The position numbers and the translations under genes were made by a program. DNA of 37,948 nt from Neodothiora populina (lineage: Eukaryota), in assembly GCF_041146345.1 (NCBI RefSeq), contig NW_027191411.1:1984001-2021948 (forward strand), read 5' to 3'. Below, piece by piece: positions 2,819 to 37,948 of the stretch (positions within the stretch are counted from its first letter, which is position 1; each line of letters begins with the position of its first letter). The notes beneath the pieces are model-generated. The model was not told the DNA's origin, ran no database searches, and saw only the letters and a program-made list of their open reading frames with translations.

Positions 2819-3989
2819 ATTCTGTAGTACGACTGTTGGACATAGATAGATGCACAGAGTGTAGAGAGGACAACGACAGCTGGTGGCAGAACGAATACTG
2901 TAGACGACAGGCAACAACAACAACAGCCAATGAGATCAGGATCCAGTCACCCCGAGGACATGATTGGCTCAGCCTAACAAACCACGTATGACAGCTCGAG
3001 GTTCCACCTCCGTTGAAGAGTCTAAAAGTCCCACTGGCAAATAAGGTTTCTCCATTAAATCCGCTGTGCTGTGCTCACATTTACTGTACTTATACCGCAC
3101 TTGTGATGAACGACTCATGACTTTGACTCCACGGGGTAGCACAGGTCGCTGCCAGTGCACTGTTTGTGGTCCGTTCTCCAGCTGTTGATCTACTGGTTCA
3201 CACATCAGGAACTACTCCATTACCAACTTATACTGCTCTTACATTCTCAACCGACATCAGTTCGTTATTAGTCCACACTTGTACTCATGCTAGCCAGAGA
3301 GCACGTCGTAAGCCAAGCATACCTTATCTTGGTAATATAAGGTAAGGTATTGAGACTGTGGTGCTGTGCTGCACTATGTGCGCCTGGCACGCTGTTCCTT
3401 CAACGACAACAAGCTTTCGAAATTTAGTCGGTGCTTTCGATCCTCTAAGCTCTGACCACCTGCACCCAGCTCGCCTGCACTATACAAGTTCTGTACATGC
3501 ACAAATCTACGGATAAGCCTTCACATGAGCGTTCAGAACCTGCTTGTCTTTGTGAGTCTTGACGGACCAGAAGACCAAGAAACATGCACAGATGCAGATT
3601 TCTCATTGAGTCGTGTGGATATATGATTGGTTTAGACGACGTATATGAACGCTGCCACTCCCGAGCGACAACATTGCATACACTCATGCAAACACAAATC
3701 TTGTTACTGTGGAGCTTCGTTATGAATGTGACAGCCATACGACAAAAGACGGTAGGTCCTGATGGGTTTGTATAACATAAAGGCTTACTCATATGACTTA
3801 CGCCCTAATCGACATCTCTGCAAAACCAAGACGCTGTACTTGACAAATTGCCTGTCTCTCGATGTTTGATTTCTTCTTATTGCAATCGATCATGACATAC
3901 AAATGACACAGTTCTTTTGTTCTTCTCTCCTCCATACGCCTATCCTTCGAGTCACATTTTCACTTGCAAGCAACACGAGAATACCGACG

Positions 3990-6763: not shown

Positions 6764-8467
6764 TGTAATGGTTGAAGGGTCATGGTTGAATAGCCGTGCG
6801 GACCAGACTGCGATCCATGCGCACGGATGTTCATTGGTGGAATGGTAGCACTGCGACTGGAAGACGTTACTAAACAAAGAATTGGCAATTGGCTGGATGT
6901 TGTGGGATATTCGACCTCGATTGTATCGAGTGTCCCGGCAGGGACGGGCTATTTCTGATATCCGTCTTGACCAACCAGATCAAATACACCTCACATCAAA
7001 TATTTGCGCAGACATCAGTCACCGCAAAAGTGCGTGCTAGCTTATGATCGCAGCTATTAGAAAGCACAGACATGAGCGACTCTCAATTCGAAATGTTCAC
7101 AAAAAGGAGACTTATGAGGCGTTACCCCGAAGTCAGATTTCTGTGCCTCAGCTAGCCTTATTAGTTTTTGCTATGCCTGTATCCCTAAGCAGCTGTATAA
7201 GGATTCAGGCTGCGCGTTATAGGTCGCGATCCTAGAATTCCGATTGCTCACACGGTCAGATGAGCTGCTGAAAGGCCAAGACGACATCACAGTTCACCCG
7301 TGACGCATACTTCAAGAACCATGGATCAAGCAAGTGACGGAGACAGACCCACGAATGTACGACTTTTTGCAATGGTTTGATGAGTCATATGCAAAGGATG
7401 ATTCACTGCCACCACGGACTGCGCTCTACTACGATTTCGTGTAGTTAAGCGATCAGTAGGAAGGTGCTTGTACAGTGCTACAGACATTTTGAGATTGTGC
7501 AGATCACTGGGAGTGCTCTGAGCAGTCGCAGGAAAGCTCAGCCTCCACGACTGGCCAACGTGATGGTCGACAGGCCATTCGATCGACCTCGGCTTCTACA
7601 GCTCAGGCGTATGGCCAAGTCCTGGTGCATCAGATCTGCATCCTCTGCAGGAGGCGGGGCGCAGGATCCGAAATCAAAAACCGTTTGCATGAGGGGTACT
7701 GAGACGCTGTGATCGAACGTGTCGTTGATGAAAGCAGGAGCGCGAGCTGGCTATTCACCCGTCGAGGAAGTCGGCGTGAAGATCGCATTGACTGAATCGC
7801 CTGAAAATAGCTAGCGGCCGAATACGCTGTAGGAGACGAGATAAGTGGTCCTAATTCCAGCATTGTTCGTCGGCTAAGACATACTGCACAGCGACTCGTA
7901 CGAAAGGAGAGCAACAAGCAAGGCTTAGATGCTGCGCCTCGGCCGCTTCCACGTTTAGGTACGCCGCCGCGGAGTACTAAGCATATGCGAAGGCACCGCA
8001 AAGCAATTGAAGTGCCTCTGCCCGATGCTTCCGATACTTCCGATGTTGCTTGTCTCCATCAAGTATTGGCATCTGGAATGCGACTCGCATGAGGCGCCAA
8101 TGGAGAGAAAAGGCGCAAGAAATGGTTAGATTCGCAGATCTCTGACACTTCCATTTCCCTGCGCGTTTGACATCCTCGCTTACACTCTCTCAATGCAGTT
8201 CTGTACGATCTTGTCTGGGACCAGCTAGTCCGAGAACTGCGTCCATTCTAGCTTTAATTGTCCAAACTACGCGCTGGCGTGGTTTGTCGTGTGGGGACAG
8301 GGCGTTATGGCGTTCCGCCGGGCTTCTCGTGTCTGACTATCGGCGTGCCAAGATGTGGCTCTACAGTATAAGGCGTCCGTCGCAAAGTGCTTTATAGATC
8401 CCTTCCGCACCTCAGTAGATATGACAATATCCTCTGCTTGTCATCGGTTCGTTTGTTCCAATCTATT

Positions 8468-11400
8468 ATGGACAGACCACCACTTCCGCCGAGAAGAAGC
8501 GCCTCGTCTGTGACTCCGACCAATTTTCCACCACCACCAATTCACGAAGCCGGGGCTTGGCAAGCTTCGCATTCCGCGCCACCACCGCTTCCGCTATCCT
8601 CAAAGCCCGGCATCTCGCGGACAGATTCACGTGATCCGAGGTTCTATCCAGAGATCAGAACAACATCCACTTCACCACCACCCCCAGCTCTCCCACGCCG
8701 TCCAAGCAGTGTGCAAGTGGCTTCACCTCCACCTGAATACCTGACGCACACGGTCTCCGCACCACCAACTCTTGACAGATCGCTGACCCAGGAGTCAGCT
8801 GCCTCGCCTGTCGCTGCAGAACCGTCCACCTCGTCTACTGCTCCACCACAGGGTCAACCTGGCAAGCGGATTGCCCGTCGTGTACTGGTCGGAGCCGCCA
8901 AGACTGTAGGTCGTATATACATCGGTGATGAGGGCGTGAAGGCAGTGGAACGTCTAGTCGTAGGTGTAAAGCAGCGGGAATGGCGCCAAGAATTCTCAGC
9001 GCAGGTAGAGCAAGGCCAAAAGGATGGTGAAGCTGCCCGAGCAAATACGAAGGCTTACTTTGATCGTAAGGGTGCGACGCAACAAGAAAACTTGCAAAAG
9101 TGGAAGGAGAAACAAGAGCCCCAGCGACTGCAGTTACAGCAGCAGCGGGAGCAGCTTCGGCTTCAGCGCGAGCAGCAACAGCTCCAGCGAGAGCAGCTTT
9201 CTATCAACCGAGAACAGCAGCGCCAGCAGCAGGTTCAATCCAATCCTCGGTCCCAAACAGCATCGGCGGCGGCTTCACTAGTCCGCTCGGAAGACATGGA
9301 GGACGTACCAATCAGGCTTTTGGAGCGCCTGGACCTTCATGCTGAGGAATCTACAGGGCCCAATGATCAAAATTACCAGCAACATCAACGACCAGTAGCG
9401 TCATCATCAGGCGGGCCACAGGAACAAATCGAGACCTGGCGGGCCCAGCAACATGATCCGGTCTTCACAAATGAACATGCTACTGTAACTGTAACTGCCA
9501 CGGACGTACCGTATGACGCTCCTCCCCAACAGTATTGGCAGACGTATTCGGATGAGCAGCTTCGTAGGCCCTACGATGTGGTGAGCGAGGTATCGCAGCC
9601 TTCAGTCTTATACGTGGCGCCATACGTGGAAGAGTCCACGGCACCTGGTTCACCGTCTGAACTAGACAGTGGTCATCAGCAGCCACACAATGCATACCCT
9701 GCTTCGGTCGTAGATGAATATCCGCGCCAAGATCAGCACGATGTCACCGAACGCAATGTCCATGAGCCAAGCTTGACTACAGAGACCGCCAGCGTTAATC
9801 AAAGAGATCAGTATATGCCTAAAGACTCACCAGCAGCGCATGCACCTCTAACCGCATACCGAGAAATGCCTAGAGAACTATCGCCGCACCTAACCTTTGC
9901 GTCTGATGGAGCTTACTTGGTAGCCTCGAGTCCTCCATCTAACATTCCAAGCGACACTGCTCATGAGTACTTCGTCTGCGCGGAGTGTCCAAACTCAAGC
10001 ATTCTCTTCTACGACTCTTTCTGGTTCCGGCACGTCGACATTCCTCTCTTCCCCATCTGTAGCTATTGCTTTGAGCATTTCATTCGAGGCAGCCGTTTCG
10101 AACCATCTTTCCAGGGCGGACTCGAGCTTGGAGGTACGATAGCTGCTCGGTGCATGTTTGGCGTTCCCCGCATGACAGAGCTTCTCTGGCCACTCGCCAC
10201 GTCAACCTCTGATATGCAAATCGCCAAGTCCTACATGGAATCACGAGTCGCAATTCCGTCGTGTTATGGCGTCACTGGGGTCAATGGGCCAACGTCGGAG
10301 GGCCTAAAGTGGTTCGCACCCACAGATAGCGCCATTCCTGGCTTCGTTGCTTGTGCAGCTTGTTACGAAGCATTCATTGTCGGTACAGACTTCAAGCGGC
10401 ATTTCATGCAATACGGAGAGATACAAGCACCCGAAGCTACCTGGTCATGTGACATCTCTGTTCCATACATCCAGAAAGCCCTGGCAGCCTGCTCTGCGAG
10501 AAACGACTGGTCTGGGTTCGTTGCTGCTGCAAAGGACCGGCTGAACTCTCCAGCTTGTGCTGGTCTGACTGCAGTGAACGCGAAGTCCCGCAAGTGGTGC
10601 AGTGGGGTCCGAGGCAAGCTTCAGGTTCTGGCATGTGAACAATGCTATCTGGATCACGTTGCCTTGACTGCGTTTGACCCCGAATTTGGACTGGCTCCAC
10701 TTGATTACAGCAAGGGAGATTATGACTTGACCTGCGAGTTAGCCATCTTACCTCTCATAGTAGCGTTAGAGGAAGCTCTTGTTTTCCGTGACCTCAAGCG
10801 CTTCTGGGACACTTGCCAAGTCCAATCGAAGACACCGCTGTGCGAGAGGGGTGATCTCGTCGGCGTTACATGGCATACGCTGAAAGGTGGTTGCGATAAC
10901 TTTGACATCTGCCCCACTTGTTATACAGGTGTGATCTGCGCTTCTGGACTTCAGCATCTCTTCGAACCGCAGAAGCACGATTCCAATGCATCATCAACCA
11001 GAAGTTGTGACTTCTCAAAAAAGTCTCCACGCTTCTCATACTACATGAAGTATTACAACGTCGCACTACACACCCCCAACAAGAGAAAATTCACGAAATT
11101 CGTCAAGAATGTTTCTAATCTCCCATTCTGCACGAAAATGGAGTTCCAGAAGACACAATTCTACACGGTCGTGCTTAACAACGACGTAATGTTTGTGTGT
11201 CAGTCCTGCTATCATGAAGCCATCGAAGACAGTGCCCTGGGTCGCTACTTCACTTTTTCAGGGGAAGTTGGGAACCATATGTGCGAGATGTATTCCGCAA
11301 ACATGAGAACTCGCTGGGCAACGGTTTGCGCGGCAAGTGTGGACGAAAGCAAGCGGCGCGGCATAAACAATGAGCCCGTGATGCCATCGGAATCGGCCAT

Positions 11401-11761
11401 GTCCGATTTCATCGCCTACCGCACGAAACGGCTGCAAGTGTACAAGGAAACGATCCCAATAGTGAACCGGATTGTGAGCTCGATAAGGCTGCGAGGTATG
11501 CAGCAGCAATACAAATACGCCCAAAGCAGTTTCTACCGCAATCTGGACAATAACATGACTAACGCCATGGGCATTCATTATGGCCCAGAGCCAGCATACA
11601 AGACAGTCTACAGCAGCTCGTTGAGTGGACGTACCTATGAAACCCCCTATGGTGTAGAGAGCGATAAGTACGCGCGTCAAGCTTCCTCAATGAGTAGTCT
11701 CGGCGGTACAGATGTGGAACGGGGAACACAACTGGAGATGCTGTGGAGAGAATGGGAATAG
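8468..11761 (+). CDS. Uncharacterised ~1097 aa protein: Pro-rich N-terminus, Gln-rich coiled coil, five tandem Cys-rich repeats
   Basis: Single long ORF; first ATG at 8468 (MDRPPLPPRR); CxxC(Y/F) cores at 10058, 10352, 10634, 10910 and 11198. Confidence 0.85.
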   Translation: MDRPPLPPRRSASSVTPTNFPPPPIHEAGAWQASHSAPPPLPLSSKPGISRTDSRDPRFYPEIRTTSTSPPPPALPRRPSSVQVASPPPEYLTHTVSAPPTLDRSLTQESAASPVAAEPSTSSTAPPQGQPGKRIARRVLVGAAKTVGRIYIGDEGVKAVERLVVGVKQREWRQEFSAQVEQGQKDGEAARANTKAYFDRKGATQQENLQKWKEKQEPQRLQLQQQREQLRLQREQQQLQREQLSINREQQRQQQVQSNPRSQTASAAASLVRSEDMEDVPIRLLERLDLHAEESTGPNDQNYQQHQRPVASSSGGPQEQIETWRAQQHDPVFTNEHATVTVTATDVPYDAPPQQYWQTYSDEQLRRPYDVVSEVSQPSVLYVAPYVEESTAPGSPSELDSGHQQPHNAYPASVVDEYPRQDQHDVTERNVHEPSLTTETASVNQRDQYMPKDSPAAHAPLTAYREMPRELSPHLTFASDGAYLVASSPPSNIPSDTAHEYFVCAECPNSSILFYDSFWFRHVDIPLFPICSYCFEHFIRGSRFEPSFQGGLELGGTIAARCMFGVPRMTELLWPLATSTSDMQIAKSYMESRVAIPSCYGVTGVNGPTSEGLKWFAPTDSAIPGFVACAACYEAFIVGTDFKRHFMQYGEIQAPEATWSCDISVPYIQKALAACSARNDWSGFVAAAKDRLNSPACAGLTAVNAKSRKWCSGVRGKLQVLACEQCYLDHVALTAFDPEFGLAPLDYSKGDYDLTCELAILPLIVALEEALVFRDLKRFWDTCQVQSKTPLCERGDLVGVTWHTLKGGCDNFDICPTCYTGVICASGLQHLFEPQKHDSNASSTRSCDFSKKSPRFSYYMKYYNVALHTPNKRKFTKFVKNVSNLPFCTKMEFQKTQFYTVVLNNDVMFVCQSCYHEAIEDSALGRYFTFSGEVGNHMCEMYSANMRTRWATVCAASVDESKRRGINNEPVMPSESAMSDFIAYRTKRLQVYKETIPIVNRIVSSIRLRGMQQQYKYAQSSFYRNLDNNMTNAMGIHYGPEPAYKTVYSSSLSGRTYETPYGVESDKYARQASSMSSLGGTDVERGTQLEMLWREWE

Positions 11762-17885: not shown

Positions 17886-19661
17886 ATGGCCGAAGCCGTA
17901 AATAACGTGAGGAACGGAAGGCCGGGAAAGAAGAAACAACTCATCATCAATGCTTTTGTTGAATCATGTATGTCCACCGGTGCCAGATTATGGTTACTAA
18001 AGGCTGAGAAGAGACTTCTACAACAGGCAGTGGACATCAGTCTCCTGGTCTATGGAGACATCCCGAAGACAAATCGTCCGGCTTCAACAAGATCAAGCAC
18101 TGGGTTGATCTTGCAAAACTACTCGAGAAAGGCAAATTTCACGGCATGTTCATCGCAGATGTCTTGGTAAGATTGCGTGGCGTCCATCTGGAAACAGTTG
18201 TGCCGCGAAGTCACAGCTAATGTGCGTCTTCAAAGGGTGCCTACGACGTTTACAAGGGACCTCAAAATCGTGATCCAGCCGTCATATCTGGTGCGCAATG
18301 GCCAGTCAACGAGCCTCTAGCGACTGTACCTGCGATGGCAGCTGCTACCAAGAGTCTTGGATTCGGTGTCACATTGGCGACTACTTATGAACAGGTGAGG
18401 GCTTATTGGACACCTTGTTGGAAACACCAAAAATCGAGTCTTGAAGTTCTAATCATTCGATGGTAGCCATATCATCTCGCACGACGACTCAGCACGGTTG
18501 ATCATCTCAGTAGTGGAAGGGTTGGTTGGAACGTAAGTGCTGCCCCTTTTGTCCCTCCAAACCTTTTCTTCCCATGGCGTAGACTCCTGTGTGACGCTTG
18601 CTCACGATGGGTTCTAGGTTGTGACTGGTTATCTTGACTCGGCAGCTAGAAACCTCGGTCATACTGAGCAGCCCGAGCACGACGAGCGCTATGCCATCGC
18701 CGAAGAATATGTGGAGGTCATGTATAAGTTATGGTAAGTCACAAATGCAACAACGGGTATCGTTCGCCGCTTACAGTTTCCTTCCAGGCAATCGTCATGG
18801 CGCGACGACGCAGTGAAATTCGACGCTAAGTCTGCTGTATACACTGATCCAGCATTAGTCAGGACGATTGATCACGTAGGAAAATACTACAAAGTTCCTG
18901 GCCCGCACATCTGTGAGCCTTCACCGCAACGCACCCCTATTATCATGCAAGCTGGGACCTCAAAAGCGGGAAAGGAATTCGCTGCCAAAAACGCAGAAGC
19001 CATCTTCGTCGCTGGCCACAGCCCGTCGGTTGTGGCGAAGAACGTTGCTGAGATAAGGTCTTTGGCCAGCACCAAGTATGGCCGCGACCCCTCGAGCATC
19101 AAATTCCTTGCCTTGCTCTGTCCAATAATCGGCAAGACAACAGAGGAAGCAGAGGCGAAGTACAATGAATATGTCAGTTACGGGTCTGAAGATGGTGCGC
19201 TTGCCCTATTTGGAGGTTGGACAGGAATCGACCTCGCCCAATATGATGACGACCAAGAACTTCGCCACGTTGAGTCGAACGCAATCCGCTCAGCCGTCGA
19301 GGGATGGTCGAAGGCTTCTCCCAACGTAGCAAAGTGGACCAAGAGGACAGTGGCAAATCATATCAAAGTGGGAGGGTTGGGCGCCACCGTCGTAGGTACT
19401 GCAGAGAAAATCGCCGATGAATTAGAAAGATGGGTCGAGGAGGCAGACGTGGATGGATTCAATATCGCCTATGCGGTTTTCCCCAAGACGTTTGAGGAAG
19501 TCATCGAAGAACTGCTTCCTGTCCTACGCCAACGGGAGTTGTTCTGGTCGGATTATGCTGTCCCCGGGGGAACATATCGTGAGAATTTATATGGTGTCAA
19601 AGGGCTGGCCTATCCGCCTAAGGATCATCCGGCAGCGGCATATCACTGGAAAGCGGAATAG
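17886..19661 (+). CDS. Luciferase-like FMNH2-dependent monooxygenase, DszA/NtaA/SnaA family (paralogue 1); 6 exons
   Basis: Spliced translation NAFVESCSGHQSPGLWRHP...FIADVLGAYDVY...[36 protein letters not shown]...PSPQRTPIIMQAGTSKAG...DGFNI. Introns 17968-18026, 18167-18235, 18395-18466, 18533-18617 and 18734-18787 are all GT-AG and frame-preserving. Confidence 0.92.
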
Positions 19662-19909: not shown

Positions 19910-21667
19910 TCACTCTGGGACAGGCGCGTCCTCACTCGCCACGTCCGCGCGCCATCTGTATTTGGCAGCAACATGTTCACTAGGCGGTCCGGTCTGTCCA
20001 GGTTTCTGGTAGAAGTTTTCTCTGTAAGTGCCTCCAGGTACGGCGTAACCATCCCAGAAGAGGCCTCTCGCGCGGAGTTCCGGCAGTAAGAGATCGATGA
20101 TGTCTTTGAATGTTTGTGGGAAGAGAGAGTATGCCTTGCACAGTATTAGCTGCCGTCATCTGGATATCTGCGGTTTTGTGTTGACTCACAAAATTGAAAC
20201 CATCAACATCGGCTTCAGTGAGCCATGTCTCGAGTGCGTCGGCAACTTGTTTTGGGTTACCCACAATCAAAGGACCATTGCCTCCAATGCTGATGTGCTC
20301 GGCGATAGTGTCCCTGGTCCATTTCTTGGTGCCAGGCGAGAATCGGGCATAGGCTTGAACGGTAGACCTAGAAGTCAAATAAGCAGTATGTTCATGCACA
20401 TCAGTCTATATGATCACTCACTTGACGGCATTACTCTCGACTTCTCTCAGCTCCTCATCGTCACCATACTTGCCGAGATCTATACCAGTCCAACCGCAAA
20501 ACAGAGCAAGGGCTCCTTCTAATGAGGCGTACTGACGGTAATCTGCCAATTTCTTTTGGGCAAGCTCCTCTGTTTCGTCGACGATAACAGTAACAAGAGC
20601 AAGAACCTTGATGTTGGTAGGATCTCTCCTATTCTGCTTGGCAAGTTCTCTCAAATCTCTGATACTGCCAGCAACGACTTGCGGGGCAAATGCGGAAACA
20701 AAGACTGCTTCTGCGTGGCGAGCACCGAAATCCTTACCAGCTTTGGATGTGCCCGCCTGCAGGATCAGTGGGGTGCGCTGAGGGCTAGGTTGGCAGATGT
20801 GAGGACCTGGGACATTGAAGAACTTTCCGTTGTGGTTAATCTCGCGGACGAGCTCGGGCTGGGTATAGATGCCCTTTTCGCGATCCAACTTGACGGCGTC
20901 ATCTCTCCACGATGACTCGAGGAGTTTGTAGATGACCTGGACGTACTCTTCGGCCTTGGCATAACGTTCGTCGTGGGCGAGCTGCTCCTTGCCGACCATA
21001 TTCCGCGAGGCACTATCCAGATAGGAGGTAACGATGTTCCATCCCAGACGTCCCTTGGTCAGATGATCAGCGGTCGACAGTCTTCGCGCCAGATGGTAAG
21101 GATACTCGTAGGAAGTTGAGACAGTGACGCCAAATCCGATGCTCTTTGTCGCAGCAGCCATGGCCGGGACAACACTCAAAGGCTCGTTGACTGGCCATTG
21201 TGCGCCTGATCTCTTTGCTGCATCAAGGTTCCCATTGTAGACGTCGTAGCCGCCTAGACTGATGTGTCAGGATTTGGGGAAGCATCTCTCGCACATACTG
21301 CGCTAGAATCACAGATCATATCCACGCAGCGCTCACGACTTACCCAGGACATCTGCAATAAAGATGCCGTGAAAAGACGCCTTTTCGAGAAGTTGAGCCA
21401 GTTTAATCCAGTGGTCGACGTCGTTGAATTTCCAGGATTCATCTTCGGGGTGTCTCCACAGACCAGGGCTCTGGTGCCCGCTGCCTGTAGTTCTGTGTTA
21501 GAAAATGTTCTAGCCAAATTCGGGAGTCTGGAACGACCGTGACGACCAGAGGATTGTTAACAAAAATAAGAAATCTACTAACACATCTCGACAAAGGCAT
21601 TGATAATAATGTTCTTTTTCCGCTCAGGTTGAACGGAATGACGCACGTCGCTGTTTGAGGCGGCCAT
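19910..21667 (-). CDS. Luciferase-like FMNH2-dependent monooxygenase, DszA/NtaA/SnaA family (paralogue 2); 5 exons
   Basis: MAASNSDVRH...NAFVEMCSGHQSPGLW...FIADVLGGYDVY...PSPQRTPLILQAGTSKAG...DGFNFAYSLFPQTF...DAPVPE* (TGA 19910-19912). Introns 21485-21582, 21254-21343, ~20368-20421 and ~20135-20190. Confidence 0.92.
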
Positions 21668-22512
21668 TGTTTGTGTGACTATTATTCTTGACGCCTAAGA
21701 CCTCGAAACGACAATAGTCTAAGTCTAACACACTTCAAGAAGAAATGTTGCACTTTATTGTTCAGAGGAAACCTTTAGTCGAGTGCCAGTCTTCTGGTAT
21801 ATTCTTAAGCTTCTAGCTAAAGTGCTTCATAGAAGTGTGTGCCTCGCCTTATTGACCCTTTCAAAAATCGACTTGACTGGACACAACCCATGCACTTATC
21901 GTACTTATCAATCTTTTAGTAAGGTCCTCTCATATCCACCACGCTCTTGGCCTGCCATGACTTGTTGTCGAAGGTTGTCGTCCAAGGCCTCGCATACCAA
22001 TGGTGTGATCGCACGTCATAAAGCCAGTCCCCCGAAGTTATGCAAATCTCCCCGCGATTCCGCGATAAGCCAGCGACACCCGCTCCCTTGTATAGCCCGA
22101 CTCCACTCGTTACTTTCTACGACGACCATTTGCCGTCTTTTACTCGTTATCTTCAATATTTGGTCCCAACAAAGCCCCTCTCTCAGAGATCATGCCCCGC
22201 TCTGGATGGACCAATTCGCATCGCCAATCACGTAAATTGTCGAGTCGGTAGTGGGCTGAATCAGTTGAGGGCGTAGGGGAAGACTCGACCGGCATCGCAT
22301 CTCGCGGCCGAGACTAGTAATCATGAATCCCACGTGCACTTGTTCATGTCTTTGCGTAAGATCAATATCGTAATCAAGGACTAGCATCTAAGTAGCTGCA
22401 AGCTGTTGCGTGTATCTATTTCCTGTCCGAAAAAAAAGATATATCAGATTCTCATCATTCTTGCATTCCTGGGAAGCCTATTCTTCTAACTGTCTCCAAA
22501 TATACGCATACA

Positions 22513-23857
22513 ATGGCATTCATTCCTTCGAGCCAAAGAGCTCTTTCATTGCCTGCCATCCGTCAGAAGTATCAGCTGGAAGTCGGGCACCCCGTCCCTG
22601 CAATTCGGGATGAACACGAGATACTCGTCAAGACCGAAGTCATTGGCTTGAACCCAATAGATTGGAAAGCACCGTATGATCGAGCCAGTCGGGTGTCCTC
22701 GATAGATGAAGAAATGACGCTGACACTTGCATTTCGTAGTGACTTTGGCTTTGGCATTCCCGTTCTGCCATATATCCCAGGGCGAGAGCTCGTCGGTCAT
22801 GTCGGACACAGCGCCCCGAATTCTACCTCATTGTTCTCCTCGCGGGTTAAACATGGGGACAGAGTCGCGGTGATATCCACAGATTACCGCGACCTCCGGA
22901 AAGCAACATATCAAGACTATGTTATATCCAGTCACTTCAACGTCGCCAGACTGCCCGAGCATATCTCATCCGAGCAAGGAGCCGCAGTCGGTGTGGCCTT
23001 TGTCACCTCGGCACTAGCTCTGGGTATATGCTTGGGTTTGGATTTCTCCAATGTGGCGGACGGGCCCGATCTGCTTGACATTGTGCGAAGTATTGACCCG
23101 GACCGACTCCCAAGCGACGTCCAAGAGGAATGTCTCTCAGGCATCGAAACACATGAGCGACCACAGAAAGGGGACTGGATAGCCATATGGGGTGGTATGT
23201 ATACCCACACTGGTCGACTCCGCCATTTCGGCACTAATAATTCATGAATCAGGATCTTCAACCTGCGCGTACATGATCAATCAGCTCAGCCGTTCCGTTG
23301 GTCTACGCACCATTCTTGTCCTCGACACTCAAAAGCATGGCCATTATCTAGCCAGCGATCCGGCCCTCCATGCAGACTTTATTGTCGACTCTGCAGACCC
23401 ACAAAGAGCAACGGAGATTATCCGATCAGTGACAGATGGCAAGCTGCGTTTCGCCATTGACACCATCGGTAGATCTACTTCAGAATTACTGGCGCAGTCT
23501 CTCCAGGCATACAGTGCAGATCTTGAAGTTCGCGCACAAACCCCACCGGGAACACCGCCATCTGACGCTGTAGACAAGGCGTCGATTCCGCAGAGGTCAC
23601 ATCTCACTGGGCTCGCAGCACTACCTAAAAAGCCAACGGGAGCTGTGTTACATAGTGTCCCTGTAAAGCTGTTCCATGACATTCCAGAGGTAGGAGAGGC
23701 TTTGGTGGCATGGTTGGAGAGGCTATTGGACTCTAGACAGCTATTGCCACCGAGAATACTTGGGGTAGTCGAAGGCCTTGAAGGTATCAACGATGGGCTT
23801 GACAGAATGCGGAGAGGAGAAATCAGTGGCGGGAGATTGGTTGCAAGGATTCGATAG
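22513..23857 (+). CDS. Medium-chain dehydrogenase/reductase (Zn-free enoyl-reductase/quinone-oxidoreductase-like); 3 exons
   Basis: EILVKTEVIGLNPIDWKAPDFGFG...PGRELVG (GroES-like), IAIWGGSSTC (Rossmann), GLEGINDGLDRMRRGEISGGRLVA. Introns 22674-22739 and 23195-23252. Divergent from DszA paralogue 2. Confidence 0.88.
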
Positions 23858-26756: not shown

Positions 26757-28704
26757 TCAGAAATCCCACCACCTCTCATGCAAATCTCTCAAGTCGACCC
26801 CAGGTAATTTTAGGTAACCCGTGATATCAAAGTCCGGATCCAGTTCCTGCTTCGTGTAACCATTTCCGAAGTAGGCAAACCGGTTGCCAGAGTCAGAATG
26901 ATACTCATACTCCCAGTCCTCCCACCTCGGCTCTCTCCTGACAATTGTCACATGACTTGCACTGCCTGGCCAGATGCCGTGAATCCTCTGCCCTGGTTTA
27001 CCGCCATTATACCACGAGCTACAGTCGTCGGAAAAGACTGTCTGAGGAAAGAAAGCGTCGGCGTACTCGACAAAATCATCTGCAGCTCGCTTCGATGGTG
27101 TGATTGTCTTGATACCTTGAGACGAGACCTTGCGCAGGACTTTTGCGTAGTACGTCAGCTGGACTTCAACAGCGTGAGGAATTGTGCCCGATGGTCCTGT
27201 CGCATTCGGGCCATGGACAAGGAACATATTGGGAAACTCAGGAACAGCGTGTCCCAGATAGCTATACGGCCAGCCGTACAGCCCGCCGGGCTTCCACGCT
27301 TGTGAAAGATCTTTTCCGTTTGCAAGGATAGGAAATGGGGGAACGAGATCGACATTTGCTCCTGTTGCGCAGAAGATGGCGTCAACCTCTCGATGTTTGC
27401 CGTCTGTAGTCTCGATGCCTGTCGAGGTGATCCTTTTGATGGGGGTTTGAATATAGTCGACGTTTGGCTCCGTCAGACTTTCAAGATAACCAGGCCCAGG
27501 AGTCAGTCGTCGGCAATTAGGACTGAAGTCTGGGACAATGGTGTTGATCAGCTCAGGTCTTTTGGCCGTCCTTTGTTTCATGACCTCGATAAATTCGTTT
27601 CGCTTCTTATTGTTGGCCTCAGAGCCGATGAAGAGCGAATCGAAGTTTCGCCAGTACTTAGCCTCAAGCTGCTTTCGAAACTGCAGATATTTCTCGGGAT
27701 CCTCGAAGTCCTTCAGCTGCTCGGCCGAGTAGGGCTGGGCCTCGAAAGTCCGCTCGTCGCCTGCCCAGGATGTCGCGATCCAGGTCTTACTGCGCGCGTA
27801 GTGGTCCACTCTCTTTGCAACCTTTTGCAGGTTTGGGACCACCTGGATACCGCTCGCACCATTTCCAATGACCGCGACATTCTTGTCCTTGGGGTCGAAT
27901 GATGGATCCCAATTCGATGTGTGTCGCAACACTCCCTTGAAATCTTCGAGACCGGGGTAATCTGGCAGCTGCCACGCATTGAAGCGGCCAAGTGCCGACA
28001 AGACAAAGTCGGTTTCAGATTCGTGGACTTGACCGGTGGTGGTATCCCGGGTTTCTGTTCGCCACACAGATTTGCCTTGATCCCATTCCAGATGGACGAC
28101 CTCTCGATTGAATTCTATCAGTCTATAGACGTCGTACTTCCGCGCCTGGTCCTGCCAATACTGTCGGATCTCATGCCCTTCGGCGAATTGCTGCGACCAT
28201 TGTGTGTTGGGAGAGAAGGTGGCTTGGTAGACATGAGCTGGGATGTCGCATCTGACGCCGGGATACACGTTCTCTAGCCATGTGCCGCTCTATAGATAGA
28301 TCGAGCATTTTGTTAGTCTATGAGAGCTCTTGGTCGTATGCATGTGGCTTTTGCGGACCACTTACCACATCGGAGTTTTTCTCCAAAATCGTGAGCTGGA
28401 TTCCAGGGACCTTTATTGGCAAGAGAATGCCGGCCAGGATACCAGCAAGACCTGCTCCTATGACAGTCACCCGAAGAGGGCGAACCTCGTCGATGTGACG
28501 ATTCTCCAGCTTCAGATTAGACTTGGGATACGAAGGCCGCTCTCCATCAGGGACTGGACCGCCCGTGAGCAAAACAGTCTCTGCCCCGTTGGGTTGGGTC
28601 GTTTCAATCCCTTTCGTGATCTCGTTACTTCCGTGATTGGTGGTTGCAGCATGACTGTTAACATGTCCACCCTGTTGCTCGGGTACTGATCCCTCATGCG
28701 CCAT
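26757..28704 (-). CDS. FAD/NADPH-dependent monooxygenase, Baeyer-Villiger (BVMO) type; 2 exons (intron 28290-28365)
   Basis: VIGAGLAG, SGTWLENVYPGVRCDIP, fingerprint FKGVLRHTSNWD (FxGxxxHxxxWD), second Rossmann IGNGASG, ATG motif (FCATG). Confidence 0.92.
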
Positions 28705-29374: not shown

Positions 29375-30475
29375 TCATGCTGCGGGGGCACTCTCGGCCC
29401 TCTTCTTGATCTCTTCGTGCACACTGGGCACCACGTATCGTCCATAATCAACTGCGTCGTTGAAGTTGTCATAGCCTCGTATACTGATGAGTTCGCAGCC
29501 GAGCTCCACATAGTCAAGGATGGAGTCACTAATCGTCTGCCAAGATCCGACTAACGCGGTTGATGCACCACGGGCGTTCGTCGCTGTCACCGTGGGATAC
29601 CATAAGCCACGATCTTGAACCTCTCCTTTGGCAGCAATGTCGAGCAGTCTCTGCGATCCGACATTCTGTGGCGGGGGTGCACTTGCAGGCACCTTGCCCA
29701 CCCCATTGGCTCGGTGAGTCTTCAGGGCATCGAGCGTGCGATGCGCCTTGTCCCACGCAAGCTCCTCCGACTCGGCACCAATTGGTCTGAATGTGACCCA
29801 GATGCGCGGCCTGTCGCTACGACCTGCCTTCTCCGCCTCGGCATAGATGCGATCGATCTGCTGCTTGGTCTCCTTGAGAGGTTCCCCCCAGAGACCGAAT
29901 ATGTCAGCCAGGCTGCCTCCGATGCGGTAGGCTTCGTCTGATGAACCGCCCACCGACACTGGGATTGTGCTGCCATTCACGGGGCGCACTTTGTTGCTGA
30001 ACTGCTTGAACTGGAAGTACTTTCCATCGAAATCAAACGGCTCTGAGGAAGCCCAAGCCCGGCGCAGGATCTGGATGTACTCCTCGAGCCGACCATATCG
30101 CTGTTCCTTGTCCAGAAAATCACCTTCGCGGGCTTGCTCGGCGTCGCTCCCGCCGGCAATGAGATGCACAACTGCGCGACCGCGGCTGAGCTGGTCAAGA
30201 GTGGCAAGAGCTTTTGCTGCGACTGTAGGGTAAAGAGTGTTTGGGCGGAGGGCAATGATGATCTTGAGCTTCTTGGTCGCAGCCGCGATAGTGGCACCAA
30301 TAGTGAACGGATCGTAGGAAGACGAGTCATAGGGTACAAGAGTGTAGTTGAACTCATAATCATCCAGAGCCTTAGCATAACGTGCGAGATAGTCCGGATC
30401 GATGGAGGCATTAGGCACAGGCTTAAGCTCTGTCGAGGCGTTGGGGAAGGTTACGCTGATGAACTCTGTCGGCAT
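29375..30475 (-). CDS. Intronless luciferase-like monooxygenase, SsuD/alkanesulfonate monooxygenase-like
   Basis: 366 aa ORF: IIALRPNTLYPTVAAKALATLDQLSRGR, FDFDGKYFQF, VGGSS, WGEPL, GASTALVGS; all typical SsuD/LLM motifs. Confidence 0.9.
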   Translation of the reverse strand: MPTEFISVTFPNASTELKPVPNASIDPDYLARYAKALDDYEFNYTLVPYDSSSYDPFTIGATIAAATKKLKIIIALRPNTLYPTVAAKALATLDQLSRGRAVVHLIAGGSDAEQAREGDFLDKEQRYGRLEEYIQILRRAWASSEPFDFDGKYFQFKQFSNKVRPVNGSTIPVSVGGSSDEAYRIGGSLADIFGLWGEPLKETKQQIDRIYAEAEKAGRSDRPRIWVTFRPIGAESEELAWDKAHRTLDALKTHRANGVGKVPASAPPPQNVGSQRLLDIAAKGEVQDRGLWYPTVTATNARGASTALVGSWQTISDSILDYVELGCELISIRGYDNFNDAVDYGRYVVPSVHEEIKKRAESAPAA

Positions 30476-31254
30476 GTTGTTGACGGTGTCAAGGATAGCC
30501 TCGAGACTTTTTGCTTGGTCTTTGTTTATCAGACAATGTTTATACAGGGAAAAAAGATAAAAGGCTTAGCCATTTCATCATTGCATCGACTATATTACTA
30601 TGTGTGAGGGTGTCGCCAAGACATGAGGATAGCAACATATGCACCGGAATCACGCAATGCAGCGTATATTGATAAGCAGCTATTATCACGGATCTCGCCA
30701 GCCGAGATCAGGCTGCTGTGGGTCTACCTTGAACTTCCGTTGAAATAAGTTATATGGATGTCGCCCTTTAGATGCGGGCATCGGGACAGCAGGTGACAGA
30801 TCAGTAGATACTTGTACTGTATCTGTGGTTACGGCAGTGTGTTGGGGTGGACGATGAGCCGTGGGGCGGCAAAACTGGGGTAAGTTACCTTATAATCCTA
30901 ATAACTCCTCCACAATCTATACCATAACAATTCAGTGGTTCGCCTATTCTTGCTTCGTTCCATCAACACAACTCATGAGCTGTAGAAGTAAATGATATCT
31001 AATGTTAGTGCATGCCTGTATAGAAACAACACACGGCTCAGGGAAACAATACACTACAATGGAATTACGTCTTACTAGATAAATGTCATCTTGTTAAGGA
31101 CTTTCTTGATCGATAGTGAATGTCAAAGTTCATTAATACTGATGCTCTATGATAGATCCCAGTGCTTTATCTCAGAATTACAAGCTCTATACCACATTTC
31201 AATGCTCCATAAATCCCTGATGTGATATTCTACCCATATCTGGATGCCACCTCA

Positions 31255-33512
31255 TCAACGTCTCCATTCCTTCAGTATCCCACGAGTGGCCTTCGCAATT
31301 GCATGCCGTCCGTCGTACACAGGGTAGACTATTACTGCATACATTGCAAAGAAATGCCAGATAATAGCCATAGTGACCCAGCCGCTGAAGAATGTCTTCG
31401 TAAAGATATAGTCGCGGTACAAAGGCAAGGGCCAAAGTACGATGGTAACCAAGACATTGACCACAAAATACACACTGGCGATTTTAAACCACCTCTTGAT
31501 GTGTTCGATTGTCGCCTGATCAAAGGGATGTTCGACTTGGTCCAGATCATCTGCGGTACTAGATTTTCTGGACTTAGGTAAGGTTGATCCCTCTTCTTCT
31601 CCGCTACTGAATCTCGCTTCTTTCTTCTCGTCGTCTTCACCTGCCGTAGTTCCTGATGCCTCTACAATCTCATCGCTCGCCATTCTGGATGGAGTGGAGG
31701 TGATCAGTTGGCTCTTATCTTCGATGAGATCAATTTTAAGGAATTCTCGCCAGTCGAAGCGTTTGGGCCAAGTCAGTGAAATGACCACCGAGTAGATAGC
31801 GGGCGAGAAACAAGACACAATCGCTCCGTAAAGACCCGGAAGCTGAACTTGAGTGGTTTGGATGTTGATCGCACCTGACCAATACCATGACAGGCTAAGC
31901 CATGTTGCAATGCCTGACAACAAACCCAGCACGGGAGCTAACATGGCTGCTAATCTTGTCTGCCCAGACCAGAGTAGGGTCAGTATCAATGGTATGATAC
32001 CCGGACATGCAATTATAGGTCGGAAGTAAGTAGACCAGTTGTTTGTGGCCCCGGCATATTCTAGCATGATGGCGAAACCCGCCATGAAACACCCATGAAA
32101 GACAACGCCCCAATGACTAACTTGGAGAGTCTTGCGATCCGAGGCTCTTGGATTGATGTAGGTACGGAAAAAGTCGAGAGATATGATGCTGCTGACTGCG
32201 ATCATGGACGACGACACGGTGCTGGTGATGGCCATAAAGACAAGTACGAGTAGACCGGCGGTGGCTCCCGTACCAAGCAAGGACCTCAGCACATATGGCA
32301 TCACAAGCCCAGAATTGACCTGTGTCAAAGTAAGTGTGTTCGGGAAATCGAACCAGACCGGAGTCGTCTCAATGACACGAGCACTCAAGCCAATGATGGT
32401 TCCCGTGCACCATGGTATGGCGATAATCACAATTGATACCAATCCGTACGCCGGAACGGTAGCGTGGACGTCAGACGCAAAGGACTTCTGCCAAAATCCT
32501 GTGTCCATCATGACAAGTGCTAGATTACCAAGCTTCAAGACCAAACCGAAAAGAACAGCTGCACACAACGATCAGCATTACGATTTCTGATTGCCGAGTT
32601 TTCTGGCGGGGCTTTCCTTACAGCTCTTGGACTTCATGGTCAGGAGTGAGCCTTGATAGTTGCCAGCAACGTGAACGTCGGCTGCTTTGACTTTTGCATA
32701 CAGTCCCGAGATGCCGCCAATATGCTCATTCGTCAAGACTGCTAGAGAAAAGTAGATTAGGAGGATTAGAGCCACAGTGGTATGCACAAAATCGGTAAGG
32801 AAGGTGGCTTTGAGCCCACCGACAGCGGTGTAGATGACAACTACGAAAGAGGTATCAGCCATTATATTTGGGAAGAAAGAGCTCGCAGACTGGACGGTAC
32901 TCACCCCCTGCGGGAATAAGGACACAAGCAGCAACGACATGCATGCCTGTCATGCCAGTCACTAGTTGAGCGCCTGCAAGAATCATGCTGCCGCAGCCGA
33001 AGATGTTGTTGATCAGGTTCAAGAGGATGAAGATCCAATGCACGTAAGGTCCATATCTGATCTTCATAATCTCAAGAGAGGTATGCGCGTGTGGCACACG
33101 TAACTTTGCCACGATTCCGAGTACAGCCATAAGTGCAATCTGGAATGAGAGGCCACTGGCCCACCATATTGGCAAAGCGATACCCCATTTGTACGTGTAG
33201 GCAGCCGAAAAGACGCTTTCATTGATCCACATCCTATGGTAATACTCGGGTCAGCAAAACATATTCCGGAAACTGCAAAGTCTCTATATCAAAGGCAATA
33301 CATAGCACATACCAGCTCGAGAAGACGGCCGAAGCTGTCAGACCAGTACCAACAGACCGGTTTGCAACCATGAACATCTCCGACTCATCACTGTCTTCTG
33401 AGAGATATCTCTTCTGTATCTGCACTGCACCCAAAATTATGAGGCAGAACAAGACTGAGAGCCCAATGATGATACCGTACCCGTCTGCCTGCGTGAGGAG
33501 TTCGGTGGCCAT
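31255..33512 (-). CDS. DUR3-like sodium:solute symporter family transporter; 4 exons
   Basis: EMFMVANRSVGTGLTASAVFSSWMW, PHAHTSLE, YTAVGGLKATFLTDFVHT, GNYQGSLLTMKSK, FMAITSTVSSSMIAVSSIISLDFFRTYINPRAS. First intron 33234-33312; two more near 32850-32905 and 32550-32620. Confidence 0.9.
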
Positions 33513-33667
33513 CTTTCCTGTGTTTCCTCAGCAAGCTTGTTCAGAAACCAGAATAGAACGAAATGCTTGAAATTAATGCATTTTCTTGTGACTATGTAGT
33601 ACCTACACCGTGGCTATCCACGGACGATCGACATGTCTACATTGATGAGCAAGGGGTGGTTTTGCGC

Positions 33668-33677
33668 ATGGTGTCAT
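33668..33677. promoter_or_regulatory. Candidate CYS-3/MetR bZIP site ATGGTGTCAT upstream of the DUR3-like gene
   Basis: Exact match to the Neurospora CYS-3 consensus ATGRYRYCAT, 156 bp upstream of the ATG. Confidence 0.5.
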
Positions 33678-34139
33678 TGCTGACGATGAATAATTCCTAC
33701 GCTCAACAATATAGCGGATGTCGCACTTGAGCACTGCATGATGATACAAAACGCTTTCCTCGGGAAGATAAGGTAAGCAAATGTTCTCTGTTGACCTACC
33801 TGATGGTAAGGTTTTGCATAATTGCGTTATGCATGTGGGGTAGCACGCGAGATCGCGTCTTCTTGATACACTTTGAGGAAACAATCGCCCTTCGCTACGA
33901 CACGTAATAATCGAGGACTAACTGTCTACCTCAGTCATGATTCCGTTCCAGGAAGGCTAGCAAGTATTATCACACTAGACAATGTATCAAGCGTATGGCA
34001 TCGAGACAGTCTAAATGCTAGCTGGTTGGCGCTCACTAAACCTGGCTCTGTGCATGTCATGCGCGAACATTGCTGGTTTCCAGAAGACTCGAATCACTTG
34101 TGCCTCTAGGATGCTTTAGAATCACAAGAGATTTTTGTA

Positions 34140-34620
34140 TTCGATGGTCTATTGTGAGTTCCAATTGTCGTTGAACTGTCACCTGGGGTCTTAGGGTACC
34201 CTTTAAGAAGCAAATAATATTAGTACTTAAGGAGATCTGTTTGCTTGCAAAGGGGGGTGATCTTTAAGACTAACTCTTATAATAACTTCCTATAATCCCT
34301 TTGTTAGTCTTAGTTAGCTTAAACAGATGCATAAAGTGTAAGGCTTACCTTACGTGCATTCTCTTCATGTAATGCGGAATAGTGCTATCCTATTTCCTGA
34401 TCACTCTAACTACAGTGCCTATAACAGTATCGATCGCAAACTCTGGGTGTGACTAGTCTGTTGTTTAGGTAGCAACCGATACAATTATTAATGATCTAGC
34501 AATAATTAGTATAAGTGCAGCGAAAGCTCTTAGCGGGTTTCGCAAAACAATTCTTTGTTGTTATCAAGTCTGGCTAGACTTGCTTGCCGTATATAGCCTA
34601 AAGTAATTGCCTTTCGCCTA
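34140..34620. other. AT/TpA-rich patch resembling RIP-mutated DNA
   Basis: Visibly dense TA/TTA/TAA words (e.g. taactcttataataacttcctataatccctttgttagtcttagttagcttaaac) compared with the rest of the window; no index was computed. Confidence 0.4.
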
Positions 34621-37600
34621 TATCAACTCGATGTGGGTGCCTACTTCAACAATGCGGCCTCCATCGAAGACATAGATCTTGTCTGCTTTAGCAATCGTAC
34701 TTAGTCTGTGGGCGACTGTGATGATCGTGCGACCTTTCCTAGCCGTCTCTAATGCCTGTTGGATAGCAACTTCGGATTGCGAGTCAAGCGCAGATGTAGC
34801 CTCATCGAGCAAAAGAATCTTGGCATTTCGTAGAAGAGCTCTGGCCAAAACTATGCGCTGCTTTTGCCCAACACTGGACTGGGTTCCTCTGGTTCCTACT
34901 TCTGTGTTGAGTCCATCCCTGATAGACGGTTAGAATCGAAAAACCCACCTTGCTCACATGATAATAAAGAACTCACGGAAGGCTCATGATAAAGTCGTAG
35001 ATGTTAGCGTCTTGACAGGCTCGTTTGAGCTCGTCATCAGTAAAGCCCAAGGGTCAAGTTCATCCGTACGGTTCCGCGAAAGAGATGTGGCTCCTGGCTG
35101 ACAAGCGCTATGCATCTTCGATAGGCGCAAAGGCGCAATGTCCTTATTGGTTTAGAACCAATGAGTATTGATCCATCAGTTGGGTCATAAAAGCGTTCAA
35201 TAAGTGAGAGGATAGTGCTCTTGCCAGAACCAGTCGCGCCGACAAGGGCTATGTTGGCACCTGCTGGAATACGCAAGCTGAGCTTGTCCAAAGCGAGATG
35301 GTCTGGGCTCGATGGGTACGCAAAACTGACCGAGTCAAACTCAACCTCACCGTGTATAGTACCAGGGTCGCTGCCGTCTGGAGACGATGGATCGATCGCA
35401 GACTTGCGAGCTAAAAGGCGCTGCAGAGACGTCGCAGCATGCTTCGCCTTGCCAAGGTCAGGCATCCAAGAGAAAATTACGCCAGCAGAGTTGGCACTAA
35501 GAAGCATCGAAGTTTGAACCGCGACAGCCTGGAAGAGACTGTATTCACTGTGAAGAATGAGCTGGCCACCGTACCAGAAGCCTAAGGCCATGCAGGCATT
35601 GTAAGCTGACTGTGACAAGGCGTACATCATTGACGTCTTGAGATTGATCTTCAAAGCCTCCGTCTGACTGGAGTCAAGTATGGTCTCGAATTCCTCGAGA
35701 ACCATCTTCTCTCTGGTTAGGGCTACAATCGTCTGAATGCCAGACAATGCCTCGCCTGCAAATGCCGCAGTATAGTTCGCAAGTTGCTCGTTCTCCTCTT
35801 CCGCAGCACTTACGAGCCAGATACTGAAGTATCCACCGCCGACTACCAAAGGTACAACCGACATGCATACTAGTCCTAGTTTCCAACCGAGGGCAAGCGC
35901 AACAATGATCCCAGACACAAGGGTGGAAACAGAAATCAGGATAATGCCCAATGCGCTGCCGTTCAAGCTAGCGAGTTCGCCGTTCGCGTCGGCTAGAAAT
36001 CCGGAAAGAGCTGCTGGTGGATTTTCTTTTCTGTCAAAGAATGACACATCCAACTTCAGATATTGTTGCAACACAAGGCTGCGTAGTCGATTGGTAAGAT
36101 TTCTAGTGCCGAATGAGAAAGATATGCCCTGGATAGTACAGCTGATAAACATTGTGAAAGCAAGCAAGAAGAATATCCAAGAGTAGAATGCTGTGTCAGA
36201 AAGAATCTTGTTCGTCTCGTCTTTCGGAAGCGCTAGTACTGTGATTACTTTACCGAAAAGCACGGCCGAAGCGGGCTCCTCACCTCCGGCAATAATACAG
36301 CAGATAAACCCAAGGAGTGGCCATTGTACCTCTTCTTTGTTGAGTTTGAATAAGAACACAATCGTGGAGAATATGGAAGAATGTGGCTCAATGTCTGAGA
36401 CTTGCGGAACCTCCGTAGCAACAGTCGCAGGCGTAAAGTTACTCCTTTGACCCGGACTGGCAGTGTCAGACCCGTCTGCTAGTGACTTGACCTCCAAGTT
36501 TGAACTCGTGGCCCTTATCCGCAGTCGACGCACCTTCGTAGTCTATGTTCTGTGCCTTAACGAATCCGTAGTAGTGAGATTTAGCAGTCACTAAGTCATC
36601 GTGAACGCCGCTCTCAACGACACGCCCTTTAGCTAGAACAATAATATTATCTGCATAGCGAATAGTAGAAAGACTATGAGCGATTACGATGGTAGTTCGT
36701 TGTCTGCCATGTACGGTCATAGACGACAGTAATCTAGCTTCTGTCTCGGCATCTAACGCAGACGTTGCCTCGTCAAGTATGAGAATGCGTGGATTGCCGA
36801 CAAGAGCTCTTGCGATAGCGATTCGTTGAAGCTGTCCGCCTGATAGTCTCGAGCCACGTGCTCCTACGATAGTGTCATATCCTTGAGGGAGTTGGTTGAT
36901 GAAGTCACTCGCTTGGGACATCTCGGCGGCCCTATAAACAAGACCTTGGCGCGTTTCCTTCGGTACGTCCTTCCAATTGGCGTTCGTCAACCCAAGTTCG
37001 ATATTCTCGAATACTGATCGGTTAAACATGAAGGACTCTTGTTTAACGATAGCAATCTGCTGTCGAAGCCAGTGAAGTTGGTAATTAGCAACATCCTTGC
37101 CATCCAATAATATGCGACCAGCGACAGGATCATAGAACCGCAATAATAAGCTCGAGATAGAGCTCTTGCCTGACCCGGAATGTCCTACTAAGGCGACAGT
37201 TTGACCCATGGGGAATGTAATACTGACGTCATCCAAGGCGATGGACTTCGGCCGGGTTGTGGATATATGCTTGATGCTCTGCAACTCTATCGTGCTGCCA
37301 AACTCGCGCGGAGCGTATCCTAAGTCAGATGATGGGTCGATGGGCGAGGTCCGTCGTAATATGCGGGATAGCCGCCGAATTCCCTCTGAAGCTGCCGCAA
37401 AGGCTTCATATTCGCTCCAACGCCTAAGACACGAAATGCTGCCGCTCTGGTAACATTTGCGATGGCCACGACAGACGTAAATGACGTCTCGTGACGGCTG
37501 AGGCGCCTAGACCCCTGCCAAAAGGCTAAGGCAACGCTGAAGTAGCCACTTGCAACACAGACAGCAATCAATGTTGAATTCAAAGATGTGAGGATAGACA

Positions 37601-37892
37601 CATTATTGGACGCGTTGCGTACAGACTTCATGTAGTTTTTGTGAACATAAGGCTGCATTCCTAGCGATGTCGTCGTCCTGATGGAACTCAGAGCTTCCTC
37701 GACGATAGCCGAGCCGGCGGAAGACGACGCCATACTTCGTCTGCTGTAGCGAACAGTCAACTTCACACCAAAGTATAGAACGGCGCAACCGAATGCGAGG
37801 GACCAGATGAGCTCGAACATAAGAACCCAATCTAGAGCAAAGCACACTACAACAGCAGCCACAAGCGTTCCAAGAGCACCGATTGTCTGAGA
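34564..37892 (-). pseudogene. ABCB/MDR full-size ABC transporter pseudogene, 5'-truncated by the telomere
   Basis: TMD1(partial)-NBD1([22 protein letters not shown])-TMD2-NBD2(GATGSGKS). Frameshifts at ~37408 and ~35042, a frame change at 36479-36533, NBD2 signature degraded to SSVGQ, and a premature TAG at 34618 before the natural end AKGNYFRLY...* at 34564. Intron 34919-34976. No start codon or promoter. Confidence 0.9.
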
Positions 37893-37948
37893 GGGTTAGG
37901 GTTAGGGTTAGGGTTAGGGTTAGGGTTAGGGTTAGGGTTAGGGTTAGG
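37892..37948 (+). repeat. Telomeric repeat (TTAGGG)n, right chromosome end
   Basis: AGGG followed by 8 perfect TTAGGG plus TTAGG running to the last base, with the G-rich strand oriented 5'->3' towards the end. Confidence 0.97.

Follow-up and report, generated by a model that had tools for sequence, protein, structure and literature searches.

How does a chromosome end come to lie inside a protein-coding gene? In the window, by which we mean the whole stretch of 37,948 nt of Neodothiora populina DNA analysed here, a truncated gene with additional lesions meets an outward-facing telomere repeat tract directly, next to an intact neighbour. A sequence-only reading of this stretch had explained the arrangement as a terminal deletion healed by de novo telomere addition and had implied that a working gene was caught at the moment of breakage. 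Our analysis makes it likely that the end arose by terminal truncation inside an ABCB transporter gene followed by de novo telomere addition. The anatomy of the end, with its direct junction, its seed of 1-2 nt and the loss of 204 codons, agrees with this part of the reading, but the gene does not look freshly broken. Residues of the gene are numbered here after P0001 (Epichloe bromicola EsDP_00003272, 1300 aa), the nearest homologue, which also served as the query for tblastn onto the window. The features at the end of the window are as follows.

31258..33512, minus strand: urea/solute symporter (SSF family), intact, with a Pfam SSF match and canonical GT..AG introns
34564..37892, minus strand: remnant of an ABCB (MDR-type) full transporter, a pseudogene, with TMD1 from TM3 on, NBD1, linker, TMD2 and NBD2, equivalent to P0001 residues 205-1300
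37892..37893, plus strand: junction or "seed", the first base of the Ser205 codon and possibly the last base of the Leu204 codon
37892..37948, plus strand: telomere repeat array, AGGG and then TTAGGG units without mismatch (9.5 copies), up to the end of the window

The telomere tract and its junction with the gene

Tandem Repeats Finder, run on the window, placed at 37892-37948 a single array of period 6 with 9.5 copies, 100% matches, a score of 114 and the consensus AGGGTT. In the assembly the array is 57 nt long and makes up the last 57 bases of the window. The plus strand carries TTAGGG at its 3' end, so that the G-rich strand points 5' to 3' toward the terminus, the arrangement found at a true chromosome end. 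A second array with at least two TTAGGG/CCCTAA units occurs nowhere else in the 37,948-nt window. On these grounds we infer that the tract is the physical terminus of the chromosome.

Alternatively, the tract may not be a physical end at all, having its origin in an interstitial telomeric tract at an assembly break, a mis-join or a chimeric read. We regard this as very unlikely, although the array of just 57 nt gives some reason to consider it: the 9.5 units in this assembly compare with about 20 to 30 repeats at native Pyricularia telomeres, as stated in an excerpt of a 2021 study (PMC8381367). The orientation is that of a true end, and the window ends within the tract. The reads point the same way, within the limits of a single source. 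Two runs, X1 and X2, are the only ones containing this DNA, with no RNA run among those listed, and all read evidence comes from one sample that is possibly the source of the assembly itself. The Logan contig of run X1 is 26,902 nt long and has a mean word depth of 29.8, a mean over the whole contig and not the depth at the junction. Over 33000-37900 it has no other letters and a single 1-letter gap, at 34252. It extends 21 letters beyond 37900 and stops there without a loose end, joint or alternative path; k-mer contigs necessarily stop inside any such repeat, terminal or internal, so that the stop itself is equally compatible with an interstitial tract. The junction and all lesions of the remnant described below are reproduced in this contig, in other words by a second, independent assembler working from the same sample's reads. 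Run X2 covers only about 34976-36302, at a depth of about 3, with no cover elsewhere. Even if the tract were interstitial, its fusion in mid-codon to a truncated gene would mark a place where an end had once been healed.

The one-letter difference in length at 34252 is the sole disagreement between the window and the X1 contig in 4.9 kb, and it falls in the DNA that separates the symporter gene from the ABC remnant.

The sequence across the junction is gtctgAGAGGGTTAGGG; a longer reading of the region on the plus strand is ...ccgattgtctgAGAGGGTTAGGGTTAGGG.... The junction had been quoted earlier as gtctgAG joined to GGTTAGGG, a string from which two letters had been dropped. Zero bases intervene between coding DNA and perfect repeats, and neither a subtelomeric element nor donor sequence is found there. 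The direct abutment of the telomere on the transporter frame is thereby borne out, the perfect array at 37892 meeting the start of homology at P0001 residue 205. Homology to the gene extends to 37892, the repeat begins within 37892-37896, and the four letters AGGG at 37892-37895 are in phase with the repeat.

The conservation of the gene narrows this overlap further. The residue before Ser205 is Leu in all 10 full-length homologues (motif SKL[S/A]QTI), and Ser205 itself is present in 9 of the 10. Gene-derived DNA cannot pass 37893, because Leu204 is invariant and the middle T of its codon (A on the plus strand) is at odds with the G at 37894. It follows from the same invariance that the letters truly common to gene and repeat are A or AG, in line with the sharing of about 2 nt proposed earlier. 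Judged from the alignment, the position of the junction is fixed to within 1-2 nt, or 4 nt at most without the Leu204 argument, so that the "single-base resolution" claimed for it was an overstatement. De novo telomere addition is recognised by a short in-phase seed (0-4 nt), here 1-2 nt, and by repeats placed directly on unique, non-telomeric DNA, which is what we observe.

The ABCB remnant and its lesions

The minus-strand open frame 37895..37320 begins PSQTIGALGTLVAAVVVCFALDW, its leading P (CCC) being a codon derived from the repeat. Four minus-strand frames spanning 34618-37895 carry Pfam domains in the order ABC_membrane, ABC_tran, ABC_membrane with half of an ABC_tran, and the end of that ABC_tran. 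The first ABC_membrane match covers frame residues 3-145, equivalent to profile positions 121-263 of 274 (E 2.2e-15), and is followed by the first ABC_tran match (E 7.4e-35). The second ABC_membrane match spans positions 3-267 of 274 (E 2.8e-41) in a frame that also holds the first half of the second ABC_tran, the last part of which lies in the fourth frame. Of the full ABCB architecture, with ABC_membrane and ABC_tran twice each, the remnant has NBD1 and TMD2 complete, TMD1 in part, and NBD2 split across frames. Motifs that we take to be Walker A, signature and Walker B are visible in both NBDs in the tblastn alignments, including GHSGSGKSS and LSGGQ in NBD1 and GATGSGKST and SVGQ in NBD2. 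The signature SVGQ was considered as a sign of decay and rejected, since P0001 has FSVGQ as well.

Aligned by tblastn, P0001 falls on the window in five blocks.

37892-37404: P0001 residues 205-367
37407-36514: P0001 residues 367-665
36494-35043: P0001 residues 672-1155
35044-34976: P0001 residues 1163-1185
34944-34576: P0001 residues 1177-1299

Residues 1-204 are unmatched. The first 204 codons are thus missing, and with them the promoter, the start codon and TM1-TM2, as the sequence-only reading had recognised. It had also placed the start of the minus-strand frame correctly, at the repeat and within TMD1 of an ABCB protein: the Pfam match sets in at profile position 121 and the tblastn match at residue 205. 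In the alignment to solved human ABCB1 chains, residue 7 of the first fragment pairs with about residue 197 of ABCB1, which, with presumed helix boundaries, fits the assignment to the TM3 region. The stump would be non-functional because it has neither promoter, start codon nor its first two helices.

The truncation is not the only defect. The breaks in the remaining frame, and the one interruption that is a genuine intron, are listed here.

37405..37406, minus strand: lesion 1, loss of 1 nt; two bases are left of the codon aligned to Glu367, and the frame shifts
36479..36533, minus strand: switch of frame inside the variable linker; alignment in one frame stops with the residue at 36514 and resumes in the next at 36494
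35039..35045 (at 35042), minus strand: lesion 3, multi-codon deletion with a 1-base frame shift; 6-9 residues are gone
34919..34976, minus strand: genuine intron of 58 nt, GTGAGT...CTAAC...CAG, splitting a Pro codon at a conserved position
34618..34620, minus strand: lesion 4, premature in-frame TAG; 17 codons of the family C-terminus, AKGNYFRLYTASKSSQT, lie beyond it

Glu367 is invariant in the 10 homologues (motif N[MLV]E[AVI]F), and the space at 37405-37406 is too small for an intron. The residues deleted at 35042, which lie between 'LG[LFMI]' and '[TS][DE]', are likewise present in all 10. Past the premature TAG, the natural stop of the remnant is found at 34564-34566, after the 17 codons with homology to the C-terminus. 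The linker is more ambiguous. Its frame change (36495-36513) may be either a frameshift or a spliceable 55-nt GT..AG interval (36479-36533); similarity to homologues on both sides suggests a frameshift, in a linker that is highly variable among the 10 homologues. With breaks at 37405-37406 and 35042, the stop at 34618-34620 and the linker frame change, no single uninterrupted spliced frame can be drawn through the remnant. It is a decayed pseudogene with at least three disabling lesions beyond the truncation.

The position of the intron at 34919-34976 is conserved, given that eight of eight intron-blind gene calls of other fungi end at P0001 residue 1184-1185. These shorter proteins (P0002, P0007, P0008, P0011, P0012 and P0121-P0123) were considered as relatives that share the truncation and were rejected: all eight start at an internal Met (P0001 residues 102-786) and stop at residue 1184-1185 through intron-blind calling.

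Assembly errors were examined as the source of the frameshifts and rejected, as the X1 contig agrees with the window, the symporter is intact and long frames are uninterrupted. An assembly-wide indel problem is unlikely because the symporter is unbroken and so are two long frames in other parts of the window, of 1129 and 978 codons. The frame of 1129 codons, at 8372-11761 on the plus strand, has no Pfam match at E<=1e-5 and contains a 21-nt tandem repeat at 9117-9198 (3.9 copies, 72% matches).

The substitutions in the remnant add to this picture. For their analysis we aligned the 10 homologues, out of 120 listed, that are named, full-length and at least 60% identical, leaving out P0004 and P0016, whose species or genus was already represented by a kept row, and added the fragments of the window separately. 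In this alignment the window and P0001 are 75% identical to each other. At columns where all other rows agree, private changes number 35/461 in the window and 22/448 in P0001, a difference that is not significant alone (Fisher p = 0.10). Their severity differs: the mean BLOSUM62 score is -0.24 in the window, with 14 of 34 scored changes negative, versus +1.24 in P0001, with 1 of 21 scored changes negative. Among the conserved residues that have been lost are the Arg in AHRLST and the YPC triplet that precedes the NBD1 core. Relative-rate comparisons gave more changes unique to the window than to P0001 with all six outgroups (84-101 versus 54-79), with p<0.05 in three of the six. Similarly, the terminal branch measures 0.255 for the window and 0.131 for P0001 in a FastTree phylogeny of 26 named homologues, chosen from the 120 listed, and the 484-residue TMD2 fragment of the window. 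By these comparisons, the remnant has an excess of radical substitutions, a sign of relaxed constraint; its extra lesions mean that it has escaped selection for a substantial time. RIP was rejected as the cause of the decay, the remnant having a TpA/ApT of 0.82 and a (CpA+TpG)/(ApC+GpT) of 1.20, compared with window-wide values of 0.71 and 1.23.

Very recent inactivation of a working gene is contradicted by the stump because it carries these further lesions and radical substitutions, and the earlier picture of a gene caught in the act of breaking has to be given up. Two orders are possible: an old truncation with decay after it, or a subtelomeric pseudogene that had died before the end was cut back.

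Origin of the end

We believe that the following sequence of events accounts best for this end. A Dothideales chromosome would formerly have been longer and would have lost its distal part through a double-strand break or terminal erosion, the loss extending into an ABCB multidrug-type transporter gene as far as TM3 of its first membrane domain. Of the exposed 3' end (...CTGAGA or ...CTGAGAG), 1-2 letters could then have paired with the telomerase template, and extension with TTAGGG would have created a new, stable telomere with no subtelomeric element between it and the gene. The stump may subsequently have accumulated, or may already have had, the 1-nt loss, the multi-codon deletion with its frameshift, the nonsense codon and the radical substitutions. 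The repeats would accordingly be the work of telomerase and not of recombination.

Within this scheme, the loss may have been gradual. Telomere failure and terminal erosion, in place of a discrete internal double-strand break, might have led to the healed end, possibly in several rounds of truncation and re-capping that walked inward, with the present junction as the latest. The decay of the remnant is in keeping with such a history, as it implies that the DNA at this end has been non-functional for a long time. Nevertheless, erosion and breakage give the same junction and no sequence feature separates them, and the 37.9-kb window holds no relic internal telomere tracts. We consider the erosive course rather unlikely, though one to be kept in mind.

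The relatives of the gene bear on another possibility, namely that the subtelomere received only a partial ABCB copy, by duplication or transposition, and that recombination (telomere capture or break-induced replication) brought the telomere next to it. When proteins of 878-2505 aa were searched, 1939 matches resulted, of which 120 were listed. Best among those listed is P0001, with 74% identity; proteins of Ophiocordyceps, Trichoderma, Pseudogymnoascus and dermatophytes come next, with 60-68%. The full-length homologues in this list are at most 74% identical and all come from other classes. The closest of the 120 with a Dothideomycete name is 46% identical. Among proteins of 275-877 aa no closer relative was found, the best being 64% identical. 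In the FastTree phylogeny the remnant is sister to the Epichloe bromicola protein with a support of 1.0, in a clade that mixes Sordariomycetes (Hypocreales), dermatophytes and Pseudogymnoascus. Such a patchy family, together with the tendency of subtelomeres to collect partial duplicates, might fit an imported partial copy. Yet capture or break-induced replication would bring in donor subtelomeric sequence, and none lies between gene and repeats. Nor is a recent parent seen: a single X1 contig matches the stretch at 90% likeness or more, with no near-identical second copy. The remnant moreover keeps its native 3' end, conserved intron and stop codon and ends only where the telomere begins. This makes a recombined partial copy highly improbable, and we retain truncation inside a resident gene, healed by telomerase, as the preferred explanation.

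How the gene reached the chromosome is a separate matter. The patchy distribution of the family could stem from horizontal transfer or from differential loss. Conceivably, the ABCB gene belonged to an accessory set, taken up horizontally from a Hypocreales-like donor, that lodged at the chromosome tip of this tree-associated Dothideales fungus and lost its distal part in a later terminal deletion. The sister position of the Epichloe protein and the low identity of the closest listed match with a Dothideomycete name are hints in this direction, but we regard the scenario as doubtful. The level of identity alone says little on horizontal transfer, because the symporter next door likewise keeps about 76-78% identity between fungal classes. 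An old paralogue that was lost differentially would explain the pattern equally well. If the transfer reading is true, the chromosome end records a cycle of gain and then loss of accessory genes at a fungal subtelomere.

The symporter itself lies 1 kb from the ABC remnant. In tblastn of P0242 and P0247, its alignment to full-length relatives continues unbroken through two canonical introns, and its exons 1 and 2 are 100% identical to Neodothiora populina AAFC00_007129. Within 31258-32841 on the minus strand, the named symporter protein P0391 (683 aa) has 21 residues fewer than the open frame of the window, the difference falling in the last exon; the deposited P0391 gene model probably removes a further 63 nt there by splicing. 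Open reading frames of a redox or secondary-metabolism type are abundant in the window (2-2935, 18738-19661, 20418-21266, 22396-23247, 26757-28289 and 29375-30565). They include an NRPS-like A-T-R carboxylate reductase that runs off the start of the window, three luciferase-like monooxygenases, an ADH_N protein and an FMO-like protein. It is possible that this subtelomeric stretch is a metabolic gene cluster. The window further contains an MFS transporter, a GH3 glycosidase and a homeobox gene.

Comparison with known systems

As a transporter, the remnant has much in common with ABCB full transporters: the order of its domains, its identity of 74-76% to P0001 by tblastn (residues 205-1300), the NBD motifs and the position of the intron. 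Its solved relatives include ABCB1, ABCB4 and the yeast a-factor exporter chain 7qkr_A. In contrast to a working ABCB protein, it lacks residues 1-204, has at least three further frame breaks and has lost the YPC triplet and the AHRLST Arg.

A full-text search on the species name returned no paper on the genome or telomeres of Neodothiora populina, judged by titles and the opening lines of abstracts. For comparison we turn to other organisms, as described in excerpts of the sources cited. In Pyricularia (Magnaporthe) oryzae, 19 of 24 de novo telomeres arose from seeds of 1-4 nt (Rahnama et al. 2020, NAR, PMC7367193), and ends that have been healed go on to suffer variable truncations (2021 Front Genet, PMC8381367). 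The likeness to the present end, as far as these excerpts go, lies in TTAGGG placed directly on non-telomeric DNA, short seeds, shortened ends and features truncated at the junction. The Pyricularia events, unlike ours, were caught in culture or in planta or were mapped by comparison of strains; rDNA or MoTeR retrotransposons take part in many of them. The end described here is known from a single genome, involves a protein-coding gene with no telomeric transposon, and leaves a decayed remnant.

Closer in taxonomy is Zymoseptoria tritici, also a Dothideomycete, in which TTAGGG telomeres form de novo after breakage (Moeller et al. 2019, PLoS Genet, PMC6510446; related 2018 preprint, 10.1101/304915). 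The excerpts describe (TTAGGG)n at the breakpoints of truncated chromosomes, similar to what we find. Those are new events in experimental evolution or in chromatin mutants, validated by PFGE and Southern analysis, whereas the end in Neodothiora is a standing feature known from the genome assembly alone. Telomere healing is also described in Plasmodium falciparum and Saccharomyces cerevisiae (PMC5550746, PMC10055226), organisms with other repeat types than ours; the yeast study, from its excerpt, concerns hotspot sequences.

The practical value of the present analysis is in the annotation of a pseudogene and a healed end and not in discovery. In a Dothideales fungus that has been little studied, the locus is a clean example from nature of the way in which the shortening and re-capping of an end remove subtelomeric genes. 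Events of this type drive the gain and loss of accessory genes by plant-pathogenic fungi. The junction is placed within 1-2 nt, and the decay of the stump serves as a rough clock. In conclusion, this end is a further instance of a phenomenon that is well known from Pyricularia, Zymoseptoria, yeasts and Plasmodium.
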